NCBI GenBank assembly: GCA_963666985.2
Contig: CAXXIA010000001.1
Coordinates: forward strand, 1 to 64,000
DNA from: Spirochaetia bacterium
GTDB taxonomy: Bacteria > Spirochaetota > Spirochaetia > DSM-2461
Length of the DNA stretch: 64,000 nucleotides
Reading direction: 5' to 3'
A program made the translations under genes and the position numbers. Below, one piece after another: positions 52,445 through 58,970 of the stretch. How positions within the stretch are numbered: position 1 is the first letter of the stretch; the number at the start of each line of letters is the position of its first letter. Under the pieces are notes generated by a model. That model searched no databases. It was not told where the DNA came from and worked only from the letters and a program-made list of their open reading frames with translations.

Positions 52445-53743
52445 TCAAGAACCGAGAAAGGTTTTAATCGCCTCGGCCAGCGTTCGGTAGGTTCGGCGCC
52501 TTTTTTCGTCATCGTTCTCCAGCAGCGTCATGCGGAATCCGTGAAGTTCGCTGCAGAATCCGCTTAAAGGAACCGCGCAGATGCCGGTGGCGCCAAGAAG
52601 CCAGTAGACGAACCGTTTGTCGGGGGCGACTCCGGCGGCGATTTCCGCAACCTTTTTTTCCACGGCCGGAATGGGACAGGGCGGAAGCGGATGATTCACC
52701 GGAAGTTCCTTGTCGAATACGACCGTCAGGTAGAAGGCTCCGCTGGGTTTGATGCAGGTGATTCCCTGAACGCCTTTGAGGATGGAAATCACTTCATCCG
52801 CCCTGTCGGAGAACATGGCGGCGCGGCGTTCCAGATGCTTCGGATAACGGGGATCGGAATAAACCCGGGGAATGGCCAGTTGAGGCAATGTGGTGGAACA
52901 GACTTCCAGACGTTTGGCGTCCAGAAGACTGGTTATATAGCGCCGGAAGATATCGTCCTTGTTCTGATTGAAGATTTCCATCCAGCCGCAGCGGGCGCCC
53001 GGCCACGGAAATTCCTTGGAAATGCTTCTCATGGCTATTCCCGGGACATCTCCGATGACTTCGCTGAGCGCCGCGGTGTTGATTCCCGGATAAACAATGT
53101 TCGCATAGGTTTCGTCCGCCAGGACGAAAAGGTCGAACTTTCGGGCTATATCGACGATGCCTTCAAGGATGGGACGGGGATAAACCGCTCCGGTGGGATT
53201 GTCCGGGTTGATCAAAAGGATGCCCGCTATCGAGTCGTTATAGCGCGCTTTCATCCTGATGTCGTCCAAATCCGGAAGCCAGCCGTTGTTCGGGTCCAGC
53301 CGGTAGGTTAAATGCTCATAACCCGAATGAGAGGCCTCGGCCGAGGAAAGCGTGGAATAAGCGGGGGATGGGCCCAGAACGCGCGCCTCTCTTCTCAGAT
53401 GAGCGAACAGGGTGGATACGGCGTCTCCCAATCCGTTGAAGAACAGAATGTCGTCCTCGCCGATGGCGGTTCCTCCGCGCTTGTTGACAACCTCGGCCAG
53501 AAAAGAGCGGGTTTCGGCATCGCCCGCCGAAGCCGTGTAGCCGTATGTTATATCTTCGTTAACCAGTCCGGTCACGATTTCTTTAATCCAATCCGGCATC
53601 GGCTCGCCTTTATGGATGGGATCGCCGATATTCTCCAGGATGATTTCCGTGCCCATGGCCGCGAAAGTCTGCGCCGTTTTTACGATTTCCCGGATTTCAT
53701 AGCGGAGCTGACCCGCCCCCTCGTGCACGATGTCTCGTCTCAT
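52445..53743 (-). CDS. Class I/II PLP-dependent aminotransferase, AlaA/AlaT-like
   Basis: N-terminal YEIR...ENIGDP, resembling AlaA YDIR...LNIGNP. INPDNPTG, LADETY and SISKEFPWPGARCGW motifs. ATG at 53743 with AAGGAAGGA RBS. Confidence 0.85.
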   Translation of the reverse strand: MRRDIVHEGAGQLRYEIREIVKTAQTFAAMGTEIILENIGDPIHKGEPMPDWIKEIVTGLVNEDITYGYTASAGDAETRSFLAEVVNKRGGTAIGEDDILFFNGLGDAVSTLFAHLRREARVLGPSPAYSTLSSAEASHSGYEHLTYRLDPNNGWLPDLDDIRMKARYNDSIAGILLINPDNPTGAVYPRPILEGIVDIARKFDLFVLADETYANIVYPGINTAALSEVIGDVPGIAMRSISKEFPWPGARCGWMEIFNQNKDDIFRRYITSLLDAKRLEVCSTTLPQLAIPRVYSDPRYPKHLERRAAMFSDRADEVISILKGVQGITCIKPSGAFYLTVVFDKELPVNHPLPPCPIPAVEKKVAEIAAGVAPDKRFVYWLLGATGICAVPLSGFCSELHGFRMTLLENDDEKRRRTYRTLAEAIKTFLGS

Positions 53744-53800
53744 GTTTCCTTCCTTAAGATCCATGACCGCGGCCGTCCGATGCTTGCTTCGGCCGGGCAT

Positions 53801-53882
53801 AAAAAAAGACCGCGGCCGTCGGAACGTCGGCTACGGTCTGAATTTCTTAAAACTCACCGCAGCCCTATATGGCGGCCGCGGC
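53801..53882 (-). promoter_or_regulatory. Transcription attenuator (segments 1-4 plus U-tract)
   Basis: Mutually exclusive pairings GCCGCGGCC:GGCUGCGGU (1:2), GGCUGCGGU:ACCGUAGCC (2:3) and AGACCGUAGCCG:CGGCCGCGGUCU plus U-tract (3:4). Confidence 0.8.
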
Positions 53883-53924
53883 GGCGGCGAATAGAGATCT
53901 TATAGATCGTTGATTCTCCGTCAT
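53865..53924 (-). CDS. Poly-Ala leader peptide MTENQRSIRSLFAAAAAAI
   Basis: Read manually: ATG 53924 to TAG 53865, with GCC GCC GCC GCG GCC GCC just before ATA TAG. Confidence 0.8.
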   Translation of the reverse strand: MTENQRSIRSLFAAAAAAI

Positions 53925-53930
53925 GTGCAC

Positions 53931-53959
53931 ACCATACAGGCGGGCGGCCTATGGGTCAA
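53931..53959 (-). promoter_or_regulatory. Sigma70-type promoter for the leader/aminotransferase (leaderless start)
   Basis: TTGACC-17 nt-TATGGT, then 6 nt (GTGCAC) and the leader ATG. Confidence 0.65.
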
Positions 53960-54100
53960 GAGAAAGGTGTGCCGGCCGATCCGATATTATTCAGATCCTC
54001 ATTTTCCGAATGAAACGGGAAATTGCGGGAATCGCCGCGTAAATCCGTAAAGCCGGGAATCGCGCGAAGCTCAAAGGAATCGGCTCAATGGGAAATAAAT

Positions 54101-54194
54101 AATGCAATCCCGCATTAAACGGTGATGCGGCAATGCATTAAAAATCTCTTTTACCGCCTTTAAACGGCTCTTTTGCTCAGGCACGTTTTTTGCA
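54101..54194 (+). promoter_or_regulatory. Sigma54 (-24/-12) promoter with upstream activator sites
   Basis: aGGCACGttttTTGCa (GG at 54180, N10, GC at 54192). Upstream inverted pair AATGCAATCCCGCATT / GATGCGGCAATGCATT at 54101-54139. Confidence 0.75.
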
Positions 54195-54222
54195 TTATGC
54201 GGCATGACCATAGGAGGAATCC

Positions 54223-55065
54223 ATGAGCGATCTGAAGACAAAGACGATTATCACTGTGGCGCCGACCGGTGCATGGCCCGGTAAAAAAGACAATCCGGCG
54301 ATTCCGTTGACTCCCGCGGAAATCGCCGATGATGTTGTTGCCTGCCGGAAATCCGGAGCGGCCGTTGCCCATCTGCATATGCGAAACGATGAGGGAAAGG
54401 GCAGTATGGACAAGGGCAAGTTCATCGAAACGGTAAAGCGAATCCGTGATCGGTGCGATATTGTACTGAATCTCACCACATCCGGCGATTTGGATGCCAC
54501 CGATGAAACACGTATGGCTCACTTCATCGAATTGAAGCCGGAATTCGCGTCATACGACTGCGGTTCAATGAACTGGCTGCACAGCAGTTTGTTCCTGAAT
54601 CATCCGAAATTTCTGGAAAACCTTGCCGTCGCGATGAAAGAGAACGGCGTAAAACCCGAAATAGAAGTTTTCGACGCGAGTTTTCTGTATAACGCCCTGT
54701 ATTACGAGAAGAAAGGATTTTTGCAGGCTCCGCTGCACTTTCAGTTTGTGCTCGGAGCGGCGGGCGGAATCGCCGCCACGGTAGAGAATCTGGTTTTCTT
54801 AAAGAGCCTGCTGCCTCCGGGGGCCACATGGTCCGCGTTCGGGATAGGACGCGGGCATCTGCCCATTTTGCTGACCACGATTGCCTTGGGCGGGCATGTC
54901 CGCGTGGGGATGGAAGATAACGTTCTTTACGCCAAAGACCGCTTGGCCTCATCCAACAGCGAATTTGTCGAACGAACGGTCCGAATCCTGGCCGAAGCGA
55001 ACAGAGAGCCCGCTACACCCGAGGAAGCCCGGGAAATCCTGGGCGTGAAGCGGAGAGCCTCATGA
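54223..55065 (+). CDS. Beta-keto acid cleavage enzyme (BKACE/Kce, DUF849 family)
   Basis: IITVAPTGA, PLTPAEIA, AHLHMR, KPEIEVFD, GGHVRVGMEDN and ATPEEAREIL motifs. Confidence 0.92.
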   Translation: MSDLKTKTIITVAPTGAWPGKKDNPAIPLTPAEIADDVVACRKSGAAVAHLHMRNDEGKGSMDKGKFIETVKRIRDRCDIVLNLTTSGDLDATDETRMAHFIELKPEFASYDCGSMNWLHSSLFLNHPKFLENLAVAMKENGVKPEIEVFDASFLYNALYYEKKGFLQAPLHFQFVLGAAGGIAATVENLVFLKSLLPPGATWSAFGIGRGHLPILLTTIALGGHVRVGMEDNVLYAKDRLASSNSEFVERTVRILAEANREPATPEEAREILGVKRRAS

Positions 55066-56033
55066 TTCGCACGGTGGGTGTTCTCGGTGCGGGAACCATG
55101 GGGCACGGCATCGCCGAAGCCTTCGCGATTCACGGATATCCGGTCAATCTTTATGAACCGAATTCGGCGATTCTCGGGAGCGTGAAAGATGTTATCGGCG
55201 ACGAGCTCCGGCTTCTGGCCCGCGAAGAGGTGATTGAGGAATCGGCCGTTTCCGATATTTTGGATCGAATCACTCTCTTCGATAATCTTGAAGATGCACT
55301 CCGGGACAGGGATTACGTTATCGAAGCGGCGCCGGAACGCATCGAAATAAAGAAAGAACTTTTTAAGCGAATGGACGATGCTTGTCCGGCCGAATGCATT
55401 CTGGCCAGCAACACATCCAGTTTGAAGCTGATGGATATGGCCGAGGATCTTCCGGAAGAACGGAAGAAGAGAATGATGGTTTGTCATTGGTACAATCCCG
55501 GCCATATCATGCCCATCGCCGAGCTGTCGTTTTTCGGCAACATGCCGGAATCACTCTATAACGAAGTTCGGGATCTCTACCGTTCCATCGGAAAACAGCC
55601 GGTGAAGGTTCTGAAGGATATTCCCGGTCTTTTGGCCAACCGCATTCAGCAGGCCGTGGCTCGGGAAGTGTTCTCTCTGATTGAGATGGGAGCGGCATCT
55701 CCTGAAGACATCGACAAGGCTCTTATTTTCGGACCGGCATTTCGATATGCAACGTCCGGCCAGCTTGAAATCGCGGATTTCGGCGGTTTGGATATTTGGG
55801 CCGTTGTCGGCGACAACCTTCTGGCGGTTATGGACAACAGCCGCCGGGCGAATCAGCTCATTAAACGACAGGTAGAGGAGGGCAAACTCGGACTGAAAAG
55901 CGGAGAAGGTTTTTTCACCTATCCCGAGGATCGTAAAGCGGACATCCGGGAGCGTTATATGCTGAGACTTATCCATCAGCTTAAGGCTTCGGATTATTAT
56001 GTAACTTCTCATAATGAAAAGGAGAAATCATGA
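55062..56033 (+). CDS. 3-hydroxyacyl(-CoA) dehydrogenase family protein
   Basis: GAGTMGHG, EAAPERIEIK, ASNTSS, HWYNP and GKLGLKSGEGFF motifs. Confidence 0.9.
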   Translation: MIRTVGVLGAGTMGHGIAEAFAIHGYPVNLYEPNSAILGSVKDVIGDELRLLAREEVIEESAVSDILDRITLFDNLEDALRDRDYVIEAAPERIEIKKELFKRMDDACPAECILASNTSSLKLMDMAEDLPEERKKRMMVCHWYNPGHIMPIAELSFFGNMPESLYNEVRDLYRSIGKQPVKVLKDIPGLLANRIQQAVAREVFSLIEMGAASPEDIDKALIFGPAFRYATSGQLEIADFGGLDIWAVVGDNLLAVMDNSRRANQLIKRQVEEGKLGLKSGEGFFTYPEDRKADIRERYMLRLIHQLKASDYYVTSHNEKEKS

Positions 56034-57403
56034 CAGCTGCTGCAGCAAAAAAGGAGAAGACGGGAACACCGTTGTGGCGCCTTTCGAAAAAATTCAATTT
56101 CGCGGCGGACAAGGTTATTCCGGAGTCCTTCGTCTTCTGTATCATCCTGACGTTTATTGTCTTTATCTTGGCTTTGATTTTCACCAAGTCGGGACCGATG
56201 AATCTCATTACCTTCTGGTTCAATGGTTTGTGGTCCATGATCGGTTTCGCTTTCCAGATGACCATCATGGTTGTTCTGACCAGCATGGCCGCCAAGTCGC
56301 CCCAATTGGAGAAGATCCTTTCGAAAGTGGCCGCCGCGCCGAAGACTCCCGCCGCCGCTTATGCGGTTCTTATCATCTTCGCCACCGTCGCCAGCTGGAT
56401 TAACTGGGCTTTCGGAACCATCCTTTCTCCCGTTCTTGCCATGTACCTCTCCAAGAACATCAAGAAGGTCCATTTCCCTCTGATGATCGCCGCGGGATAC
56501 GCCTGTATGGTAATGATTCAGCCGATCTGTCCGAGCATCTCCGCCGTGGCGCTGCTGGCCTCTCCGGATCATTTCATGGTGGATAAGATCGGTGTTCTGC
56601 CCGTTTCATCGACCGCGTTCAATCCCCTGGGCCTTATCATGGTCGGCGTTCTTTTCGTCGTAACCCTTATCGTCACCATTCGTACGATACCGCCGGACGA
56701 TGAGCTGGTGGAATTCACCGGTGATATTCGAACCGGAAATGATGTATTCAATGAAAAGGGAGAAATTATTACTCTCGCCGACAGGATGAACAGCAGCCGC
56801 ATCATCATGCTGATTACGGCCCTCATCGGAACCGCCTATATCGTTTTCCATGCCGTAAAAGGTCAAAGCTTGTCGCTGAACTTCATCATTTTCCTGTTTC
56901 TCATTTTGGATCTCTACCTTTACAAAACTCCCAAAGGTTTCATAGACGGTGTGAAGGAAAACATGCACCTGGCCACAAACGTTATGATTCAGTTCCCCTT
57001 CTACGGAGGCATTATGGGCGTTATGGCTTCCTCCGGACTGACCATGGTGCTGGCCAACGGTCTTGTGTTCCTTTCTTCCGAGAAAACCATCTACTGGGCG
57101 TCTTATGTCTCGGCTTCCATCGTCAACCTGTTTGTACCTTCCCAGGGCGGTCAGTGGATTGTACAGGGGCCCATCCTCGTGGAAGCGGCCAAATCCTTCA
57201 ACGCCCATATGCCCTCCATCGTTACGGCTTTCATGCTGGGAGATGAGGCCACCAACCTTATTCAGCCTCTCTACATTATTCCCGCTTTGGCTCTGGTGGA
57301 TATGAAGCTGAAAACGGCCTGGGGATTTATGGCCTTCATCTGGTTTATCTGGTTTATCGTAACCACCATCGGACTTCTCGTTCTGCCCATGATTCTTCTT
57401 TGA
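56030..57403 (+). CDS. Short-chain fatty acid transporter (AtoE-like)
   Basis: IPESFVF, FAFQM, QFPFYGGIMG, NLFVPSQGGQW and NLIQP motifs. Confidence 0.85.
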   Translation: MTAAAAKKEKTGTPLWRLSKKFNFAADKVIPESFVFCIILTFIVFILALIFTKSGPMNLITFWFNGLWSMIGFAFQMTIMVVLTSMAAKSPQLEKILSKVAAAPKTPAAAYAVLIIFATVASWINWAFGTILSPVLAMYLSKNIKKVHFPLMIAAGYACMVMIQPICPSISAVALLASPDHFMVDKIGVLPVSSTAFNPLGLIMVGVLFVVTLIVTIRTIPPDDELVEFTGDIRTGNDVFNEKGEIITLADRMNSSRIIMLITALIGTAYIVFHAVKGQSLSLNFIIFLFLILDLYLYKTPKGFIDGVKENMHLATNVMIQFPFYGGIMGVMASSGLTMVLANGLVFLSSEKTIYWASYVSASIVNLFVPSQGGQWIVQGPILVEAAKSFNAHMPSIVTAFMLGDEATNLIQPLYIIPALALVDMKLKTAWGFMAFIWFIWFIVTTIGLLVLPMILL

Positions 57404-57418
57404 TTCCAAGATCAATCG

Positions 57419-57475
57419 AACCTTCCGATTTTCGTCCCCCTTTCATTAAGGGGACGGAACGGAAGGTTTTTCTTT
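57419..57475 (+). terminator. Terminator after the BKACE operon
   Basis: AACCTTCCG...CGTCCCC...GGGGACG...CGGAAGGTT followed by a T-rich tail. Confidence 0.65.
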
Positions 57476-57509
57476 TGTCCGCCGCAGGCTTATCGTACAA
57501 TAGGGTGTT

Positions 57510-58970
57510 ATGAATTCAATCCGTGTATCGGACATTGCTCTTTCTGAGGCCGAATCTTTTGCCCGCTGGAGTACCTCCGACAGCCGAAGGATGCTCGGAA
57601 TCGATTCTTTCGCCATTGCCGATGCCGTCGGATACGGAATCTATGTTATCAACGATCAGTCCGTTATTACCGATGCAAACCGCACCTACCGGGAACTTAC
57701 CGGAATGTGGCCCAAGGAGTTTCTGGGGAAAAGCGTTCGGCAGGTTCTGGACGGATTTTTCGTCAACAGCCGGGCGGTGGCGGTGCAGGCGCTGGAAACC
57801 GGCCGTAAGGCCACCGGACTGGGGCGGCCGAAGAGGGTGGATAAGGATCTGCTGGTTACCGCCATTCCGGTTTTCGACGAACAGGAACACGTGGTAAGTG
57901 TCGTAACGGTCCTTCGTGATGTTACCGAAGAACTTCGGTTGCAGCGCCAACTCGATAAGAATTTGGAAATTACCGAAATCTATCAGCAGGAATTGGATTA
58001 TTACCGATCCCGCGAGCGCGGAACACGGCTTCTGATGGGAATCACCGAGGGGATGGAACAGATTAAAACCCTCATCACTCAAGTGGCGCCGGTGGATACC
58101 ACCGTTCTTATTTCCGGAGAAACGGGAGTGGGAAAGGAGGTTGTTTCTCATGAGATTCATAACCGCAGTCACCGGAAGGATTATCCGTATATCAAAGTGA
58201 ACTGCGCGGCCATCCCCGCGTCGCTCATGGAAAGTGAACTTTTCGGCTACGAGAGGGGAGCCTTCACGGGAGCCGACAGCAAACGGAAGCTCGGATATTT
58301 CGAAACGGCCAACCATGGGACCATTCTTCTGGATGAAATCGGGGAAATCCCCTGCCTCTTCAGGCCAAGCTGCTGCGCGTTCTTCAGGAGAGGGAGCTCA
58401 GACGACTGGGAGGTTCTTCTCCGATAAAAGTGGATGTCAGGATTATCGCGTCCACCAATAAGAACCTAAAAAAAGAAGTGGCGGACGGCCTTTTCCGAAG
58501 GGATCTGTATTATCGTCTCTGCGTTATTCCCATTGAGATTCCGCCCCTTCGGGAACGAACCGGCGACATCCCTATCTTGGCCGAGCATTTCCTGAATGAG
58601 TTCAACAGCCGTTACGCGGCGACCAAGAAGATTTCCCTGAAAGCCTTTGAAGTTTTTAATAGGTATGAGTGGCCGGGGAACGTCCGGGAACTGGAAAATA
58701 TCATTGAGCGTTTGGTGGTAGTGACAAAATCTGATATTATCGATGAAAATGATGTATGTGGTGTTCTTTTCGGAATGGCCGGCGGAACCGCCCCCGGTGA
58801 GGCCGGTTCGACGTCTTTCCAAGACACGGTAAACCATCTGGAGAAGACCCTTATAGAGAAACGCCTTAATGGAAACCGGGAGTTCCTATAAAGCCGCCGA
58901 AAGATTGGGGATGAATCAATCCACCGTCATTCGTAAGGCTCAAAAGTATGGAATTGCACGATGGCGATAA
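57510..58970 (+). pseudogene. PAS-AAA+-HTH sigma54-dependent activator with two frameshifts (pseudogene or sequence error)
   Basis: GETGVGKE, GAFTGA and LDEIG motifs. A missing C near 58350 restores PLPLQAKLLRVLQ. After WPGNVREL, an extra A near 58860 precedes a Fis-type HTH (SYKAAERLGMNQSTVIRK) ending at TAA 58970. Confidence 0.85.

Follow-up and report, generated by a model that had tools for sequence, protein, structure and literature searches.

A candidate alanine-sensing leader-peptide attenuator upstream of an AlaA-like aminotransferase gene in Spirochaetia

The aminotransferase gene and its leader

In a 64,000-nucleotide (nt) stretch of DNA from a Spirochaetia bacterium (GenBank assembly GCA_963666985.2, contig CAXXIA010000001.1, positions 1 to 64,000; here called the window), the minus strand carries a gene for a pyridoxal 5'-phosphate (PLP)-dependent class I aminotransferase, which is preceded by a short leader containing a promoter-like sequence, a small open reading frame (ORF) with a run of alanine codons and a series of complementary segments that can fold into alternative helices. 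The original prediction, made from the letters of the sequence, was that this leader is an attenuator through which alanine limitation would induce the enzyme. The analysis described here favours the same reading, with a probability of roughly 0.83, namely that a ribosome stalling on the alanine codons would gauge the supply of charged tRNA-Ala and thereby govern transcription of a gene for an alanine-forming transaminase.

The elements of the leader (Table 1) lie where they had been placed, from the TTGACC-17-TATGGT promoter and the ATG that follows 6 nt later, through the 19-codon ORF with its six Ala codons (five GCC and one GCG), to an intrinsic terminator whose seven T residues lie 58 nt before the enzyme ATG at 53743, about 60 nt having been predicted. 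Transcription probably starts at or beside the leader ATG at 53924, such that the leader ORF would itself be leaderless. The hexamer pair is the sole promoter-like match in 53500-54500 but, since shuffled sequence averages 1.2 such matches, it is by itself no evidence of a promoter. The calculated helix energies are -17.3 kcal/mol for segments 1 and 2 (1:2; -19.5 when extended), -17.7 kcal/mol for segments 2 and 3 (2:3; -19.3 when extended) and -18.5 kcal/mol for segments 3 and 4 (3:4), and the 130-nt leader is more stable than 200 of 200 shuffles (z -4.0). A simple terminator scan did not report the 3:4 hairpin, the stem of which carries mismatches. Segment 4 is duplicated downstream, and folding predicts that it can pair with its duplicate in the read-through RNA (-24.5 kcal/mol).

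Table 1. Features of the aminotransferase gene and its leader, in window coordinates.
Feature	Position	Strand	Basis or detail
-35 hexamer TTGACC	53954..53959	minus	sequence reading
-10 hexamer TATGGT	53931..53936	minus	sequence reading; 17-nt spacer from TTGACC
Leader ORF, 19 codons, MTENQRSIRSLFAAAAAAI and stop	53865..53924	minus	stop codon 53867-65
Ala control codons, six (codons 13-18)	53871..53888	minus	GCC GCC GCC GCG GCC GCC
Segment 1, 3' portion of the Ala codons	53882-53874	minus	pairs with segment 2 here
Segment 2, antiterminator 5' arm, immediately 3' of the stop codon	53856..53864	minus	pairing, folding
Small inner hairpin lengthening the 2:3 helix	53840..53855	minus	folding
Segment 3, arm common to antiterminator (2:3) and terminator (3:4)	53828..53839	minus	folding, covariation
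Segment 4, terminator 3' arm	53807..53818	minus	folding, covariation
U7 tract of the intrinsic terminator	53801..53807	minus	sequence; U-tract conserved in the relatives' alignment
Duplicate of segment 4, GACGGCCGCGGTC, without U-tract	53765..53777	minus	sequence, folding
Shine-Dalgarno-like AAGGAAGGA of the enzyme gene	53747..53755	minus	sequence reading
PLP-dependent class I aminotransferase, 432 aa, NCBIfam NF005334 (PRK06855), predicted alanine transaminase	52445..53743	minus	profile match

The enzyme matches NF005334 at 631 bits, against a curated cut-off of 443, and the label of AlaA-like that it had been given is upheld in that its nearest solved structures are Escherichia coli AlaA and 1xi9. 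The alanine pocket of AlaA (4cvq), as described in the available part of PMC4094517, is shaped by the plug Tyr15-x-Ile17-Arg18 together with Ile40-Gly41, Tyr129 and a branched residue at 276. These residues align with Y15, I17, R18, I39, G40, Y129 and V281 of the enzyme, each of which is invariant across 189 of 189 collected homologues, and the catalytic lysine is likewise shared. Alanine/pyruvate as the substrate pair is a well-supported prediction rather than a result. The two genome sets searched yielded the enzyme in 22 of 41 genomes and in 61 of 401, and Methanocaldococcus jannaschii also encodes a member of the family above the cut-off.

Conservation of the leader peptide and the RNA switch

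A search of orthologues for Ala-run ORFs and compensatory stem changes had been proposed along with the original prediction, and both are found. From 129 enzyme loci, 6 truncated and 13 duplicate loci were removed to leave 87 Spirochaetia and 23 other upstream regions. An upstream ORF (uORF) with an Ala run is present in 66 of the 87 distinct Spirochaetia regions and in none of the 23 non-spirochaete loci. As a background, the same rule finds such a uORF within 400 nt of 38 of the 2415 long ORFs of the present genome, a number that falls to 2 when the -35 spacing is added, one of them being the element studied here. An exact TTGAC occurs in 69 orthologous regions, with an ATG 35-37 nt downstream in 56 of them, and 52 of these 56 anchored ATGs read in frame into the Ala run, which begins at codon 11-17 in the relatives. 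The reading frame is thus held from a fixed AUG through whole-codon changes in length. The codons 5' of the run vary freely, the Ala run being the only conserved part of the spirochaete leader peptides, and it is written with GCC (115), GCA (107), GCG (101) and GCT (30), the third position varying along the run. The use of all four codons, together with these variable third positions, points to decoding rather than pairing.

The remaining 21 of the 87 regions have no Ala run. In five of them, which have no leader (L002, L003, L005, L006 and L015), TTGACC stands some 35-36 nt directly before the enzyme ATG, and the enzyme mRNA itself looks leaderless; leaderless mRNAs are reported for the spirochaete Borrelia in the available part of PMC5314773. 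In three AT-rich relatives (L018, L020 and L021) the promoter, the uORF and the switch persist, although the ORF has no more than 2-3 Ala codons, which are scattered (SAKAS, SAEAT and SASAKA). No Ala leader was found in 50 enzyme loci from other classes of the spirochaete phylum, nor 5' of ald, alaS or ilvB in this genome. Nineteen loci centred on Planctomycetota and Bacteroidota, two of which repeat earlier ones, gave no convincing Ala leader, two of the 19 matching a looser rule that has a background of 85/2415. A second poly-Ala ORF, at G000:C1:1450030, was rejected as it lies antisense within a long ORF.

The RNA elements behind the uORF are conserved along with it. A hairpin and U-tract are found in 64 of the 66 spirochaete Ala leaders, and segment 2 begins a few bases 3' of the Ala run, regardless of whether the stop codon precedes or follows it. 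In an alignment of 42 of these 64 leaders, which left aside any leader carrying long inserts or a six-segment arrangement, the terminator helix pairs in 93.5% of 462 cells against 36-50% in slid registers, and its two-sided changes number 49, compared with 18.3 after shuffling. The antiterminator, the alternative pairing that had been foreseen, pairs in 71.9% of 502 cells (36-56% in slid registers) and carries 61 two-sided changes against 19.3 when shuffled, one subfamily being off register owing to a bulge. The native helix outscores the cross-species median in 40 of the 42 leaders for 3:4 and in 39 for 2:3. The predicted pairing of segments 1 and 2 has fared less well, for it is present in this leader but weakly conserved, with 25 of 42 above the median. 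Sequence comparison and folding therefore establish the ORF, its reading frame and two mutually exclusive, covarying helices in the geometry of the trp, his, leu and thr attenuators, as the original prediction held.

The influence of translation on this fold was modelled by masking a ribosome footprint on the RNA before folding. When the footprint is placed at the first Ala codon the antiterminator forms in 42 of 42 nascent RNAs, and when it is placed at the stop codon in 4 of 42, the terminator then having a mean probability of 0.96 in the full leader; this agrees with the claim that stalling on the Ala codons would free segment 2. The models and the alignment suggest that the conserved switch is the covering or freeing of segment 2 by the ribosome, with the 1:2 hairpin as its least conserved part. 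Rfam covariance models gave only chance-level matches in the window (E 3.8 or worse), no leader or T-box family being matched at its threshold, and 0 matches in four other loci.

Could the GCN repeats instead be kept for RNA pairing alone, the ORF being a by-product and the terminator being constitutive or under the control of a ligand or protein? Segment 1 does resemble segment 3, and does pair with segment 2 in this leader, but the frame kept in 52 of 56, the varying third positions, the rank of 1:2 as the weakest-covarying helix and the want of an Rfam family match leave such an explanation scarcely credible.

Some leaders are more elaborate. Nine (L019, L032, L035, L036, L037, L050, L051, L053 and L054) look like six-segment cascades, with an extra complementary segment pair between the Ala run and the terminator. 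In the simple folding model L053 switches cleanly, L019, L037 and L051 switch partially, L032, L050 and L054 do not switch, and the terminator of L035 and L036 is misassigned.

A second design in the Geobacter class and leaders on other genes

Ala-rich leaders also occur before the same enzyme outside the spirochaetes. In the phylum of genome G621, 10 of 30 orthologues have an Ala-rich uORF and a terminator, and exact protein look-ups place these orthologues in Geobacter, Geotalea, Trichlorobacter and Geoalkalibacter, the enzyme of L268 being identical to AAR33452.1 of Geobacter sulfurreducens. The enzyme is present in 91 of 91 genomes of this class, which we take to be Desulfuromonadia. From these 91, 48 loci were newly fetched (28 top-scoring and 20 hand-picked), of which 39, including that of G. 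sulfurreducens, have a leader under the Ala-rich rule; the total of 49/59 adds the 10 earlier positives and one negative, and the background of 85/2415 for this rule was measured in the window's own genome. The Geobacter leader peptide is not represented by any NCBIfam model.

The arrangement of these leaders differs from that in Spirochaetia in a number of respects. The end of the ORF holds segment 2, and by spacing many of these leaders are again leaderless. An Arg-Ala pair comes before the Ala run, and its Arg codon is CGA in 35 of 36 cases, compared with 42 of 1242 Arg codons across the enzyme genes. At L268:2992-2852 (minus strand) and in L235-L312, a near-invariant CGA-GCT (Arg-Ala) stands about 75-105 nt before the terminator, with no fixed pairing seen. 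The logic of the switch is nevertheless that of the spirochaete leaders, and in the folding model the antiterminator forms in 46 of 50 leaders with the ribosome on Ala and in 5 of 50 with it at the stop codon, where the terminator forms in 50 of 50. Covariation of 2:3 is weaker here (38/50).

In a FastTree phylogeny of 124 enzymes a branch with 100 local support separates the two designs, and lineages that lack a leader occur to either side of it, a topology that fits two origins of the Ala leaders without proving them. A broader proposal, which is tentative and somewhat doubtful as a whole, is that alanine-counting attenuators may have arisen twice independently on one enzyme family, as a leaderless poly-Ala run in Spirochaetia and as Arg(CGA)-Ala-x-x-Ala-Ala-Ala in the Geobacter class, with CGA as a built-in pause or second input, and that Spirochaetia may reuse the scaffold for branched-chain amino acids.

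The CGA codon, rare as it is in the enzyme genes, also bears on the idea that the leader is a general sensor of translation stress like that of mycobacterial whiB7, in which any slowing of the ribosome, whether by antibiotics, other starvations, a nascent peptide or a rare-codon pause, would open the gene, so that alanine would not be the specific signal. The Ala-enriched whiB7 uORF reacts to many amino acids and drugs, according to the available part of its description, and the three AT-rich spirochaete leaders retain the switch with few Ala codons. Nevertheless, what spirochaete leaders conserve is the Ala run alone, located just 5' of segment 2, and the gene under control encodes a metabolic enzyme and not a resistance regulator; such a general sensor is very unlikely.

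A covariance model of the spirochaete leader, searched against 151 genomes, gave strong matches in two settings only, before the NF005334 aminotransferase and, in a single case, at the end of a contig. The latter (L152, G158:C130) is a second Ala leader in that genome, near-identical to L025 of another genome, and could represent either a paralogue or contamination of the bin. Weaker matches comprise ilv leaders, ordinary terminators and coding Ala runs. For instance, L167, L169 and L170 have leaderless ORFs rich in Ile, Leu and Val, such as MTFNGIVGSLIIILLIIGLGNGHPRVGG and stop, with the same terminator layout before ilvB, and L184 has a similar leader before ilvD. As judged from these sequences, codon content follows the pathway in Spirochaetia leaders built on the same leaderless scaffold.

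Two further leaders and a neighbouring cluster were noted. In the present genome, at G000:C2:3023607 on the minus strand (L131), TTGACA lies 37 nt before an ORF reading MKTAYYTDKMFSLVIVPFRGGT and stop, followed by a hairpin and U-tract, upstream of an ABC-transporter ATPase gene; this leader is again of the leaderless type and is possibly a drug- or amino-acid-responsive attenuator. L161 (G133:C1:1787832-1787941, minus strand) has a uORF, MTNLRYFEVAVSADIKSKGDLS and stop, and a terminator, upstream of the gene for a small protein (about 67 aa). In the window, a divergent cluster lies on the plus strand (54223-58891), with genes for a 3-keto-5-aminohexanoate-cleavage-like enzyme, a 3-hydroxyacyl-CoA dehydrogenase, a TIGR00366 transporter and a PAS sigma-54 activator, the last of which appears split at 58427/58430.

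Proposed attenuation and its relation to known systems

In the proposed mechanism, of which the start site, translation of the leader, termination in vivo, the response to alanine and the enzyme substrate are all predictions, transcription would begin at the leader AUG, and a ribosome would load without a Shine-Dalgarno sequence and reach the Ala run after 12 codons. When alanine is plentiful the ribosome would continue to the stop codon and cover segment 2, segment 3 would pair with segment 4, and the polymerase would halt at the U-tract near 53801. When alanyl-tRNA is scarce the ribosome would wait on the Ala codons, and the free segment 2 would capture segment 3 before segment 4 is made. 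Capture of segment 3 would allow the enzyme gene to be transcribed, and segment 4 might then be held by its downstream copy.

Several results weigh against this reading, the first of them from the comparison and the folding. Relatedness of the sequences inflates the covariation counts, the slid controls being much lower, and the number of terminator pairs with a two-sided change is not above shuffles (259/500). At equilibrium, with the ribosome on the first Ala codon of the full leader, the antiterminator exceeds a probability of 0.5 in just 15 of 42 leaders and most prefer the terminator; in the leader studied here the values are 0.25 for the antiterminator and 0.58 for the terminator. As the full leader at equilibrium is mostly terminator-prone despite a stalled ribosome, the switch would have to be kinetic. 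With no ribosome at all the nascent RNA forms 2:3 in 33 of 42, from which it follows that the 1:2 protector is weak.

The second group of results comes from RNA sequencing (RNA-seq). Four raw runs from two studies were aligned on the G. sulfurreducens leader, which is of the second design and not the window leader, and cover it on the right strand in all four, with read-through from the upstream gene. Depth over the leader is below that over the gene (27-62 in X24, against 230-316 across the gene's first 270 nt), and in the four runs there is no pile-up of 3' ends at the terminator and no terminated leader. The libraries are paired 150-nt reads, expected to lose a 145-nt RNA. Size selection, uncertain media and hairpin bias make these data weak, and termination nonetheless goes unsupported by them.

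It is here that a post-transcriptional role for the leader, in mRNA processing, stability or translation, or expression of the enzyme mostly from a second start behind the terminator, has to be considered. Depth in G. sulfurreducens climbs about 4- to 10-fold just past the terminator, 9 of 37 fragment ends in one run fall at 2910, near the end of the uORF, and the repeat of segment 4 lies near the Shine-Dalgarno site; a well-studied mycobacterial precedent, the leaderless poly-Cys leader, acts on translation (10.1101/834739, as far as the available text goes). Set against these points, the hairpin and U-tract are kept in 64 of 66 spirochaete leaders and covary, and the Shine-Dalgarno sequence is only weakly paired in the predicted read-through fold. 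Structured 5' leaders, moreover, are often under-covered in RNA-seq. Taken together, this explanation is highly unlikely.

The last group concerns the enzyme, which scores 169 bits, below the cut-off of 534, against the alanine aminotransferase model NF006230, its next best match, and which is distant from AlaA (132 bits), a member of an NCBIfam family other than NF005334. The attenuator could therefore be real with alanine as a proxy, the enzyme mainly catalysing another reaction, such as transamination of another small amino acid, valine:pyruvate transamination or nitrogen shuttling, and the Ala run reporting pyruvate or nitrogen status. The generic name of NF005334 would fit with this, as would the presence in the genome of alanine dehydrogenase and 11 further class I/II aminotransferase matches and the outcome of a literature search that found no assay of the family. 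The AlaA selectivity residues, however, are invariant, some database records title the homologues 'alanine transaminase' or 'alanine-synthesizing transaminase' (names that are automatic), and both leader designs, though different, use Ala codons, so that a proxy role for alanine is unlikely.

If the attenuation reading is true, textbook attenuation of the trp and his type would extend to alanine in a direct form, in a phylum with little-studied cis-regulatory RNAs, and leaderless initiation would serve a transcription attenuator. It would also predict a substrate for an aminotransferase family that bears a generic name and occurs in bacteria and Methanocaldococcus. For terminators catalogued without explanation in 2010 the Geobacter design suggests a ligand, and G. 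sulfurreducens is harmless and genetically tractable.

Those terminators appear in supplementary tables S0 and S8 of Naville and Gautheret 2010 (PMC2965389), which place them 37 nt before GSU0117 and Gmet_3325, assign the genes to aminotransferase family HBG502043 and leave the attenuator annotation blank. They are very probably the Geobacter leaders found here, the locus tag being inferred from the accession and the measured distance being 40-49 nt. That work gives them no uORF, ligand or mechanism, and the word 'Spirochaeta' is absent from its supplement. Among other surveys, the available parts of PMC11550727 and PMC3783181 name no direct Ala attenuator, and alanine, attenuation and leader are not mentioned in the main text of PMC2700814, and none of four terms looked for occurs in 12 of its 19 supplements. 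The literature search as a whole found no description of the element; it covered few subscription papers, the main comparative surveys not being among them, and absence from print is thus not established.

The enterobacterial leader-peptide attenuators trpL, hisL, leuL, thrL, pheL, ilvL and ivbL, whose architecture is summarised in the available parts of 10.1101/834739 and PMC3783181, are the closest in form. Like them, the present leader has a short ORF in which codons for the predicted end product stand in tandem, together with exclusive antiterminator and U-tract terminator helices, and stalling is proposed to give read-through into a biosynthetic gene. Unlike them, it has Ala codons, initiation that is leaderless by spacing, a weakly conserved 1:2 hairpin and no match to an Rfam leader family, and it occurs in spirochaetes and the Geobacter class. 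In the mycobacterial leaderless poly-Cys attenuators (Canestrari et al., 10.1101/834739) the short ORF likewise repeats a single amino acid, the one being sensed, and the present ORF is probably leaderless too. Those attenuators, however, sense cysteine and, in the available account, hide a Shine-Dalgarno sequence to control translation, whereas the present leader has an Ala run and an intrinsic terminator.

Alanine itself has been linked to several leaders. The alanine T-box of Firmicutes (alaRT, alaS) reads alanine supply through tRNA-Ala, which it binds in the uncharged state and with no ribosome involved. In E. coli the ilvB leader contains Ala codons and reportedly reads mainly Leu and Val, and we know of no attenuator on E. 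coli alaA. The original prediction knew of no described Ala-codon attenuator, but one is on record in the mycobacterial whiB7 'Ala leader', a uORF attenuator that detects alanine starvation and leads to more of the alanine aminotransferase aspC (Poulton et al., 10.1101/2023.06.02.543512, in its available part). The two systems share an Ala-enriched uORF coupled to an intrinsic terminator and, as predicted here, antitermination on stalling and more alanine aminotransferase as the outcome. By the same partial account, the whiB7 uORF has a greater length and responds to many amino acids and drugs, and the gene under its control encodes a transcription factor, unlike the compact Ala run that stands directly before the aminotransferase gene in the present leader. 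That study, so far as available, leaves open why cells build 'Ala leaders', for which the compact leaders may offer simpler cases. The element described here would therefore not be the first alanine-tuned uORF attenuator, but a compact attenuator of the trp and his type placed directly on the enzyme gene would be a new form.

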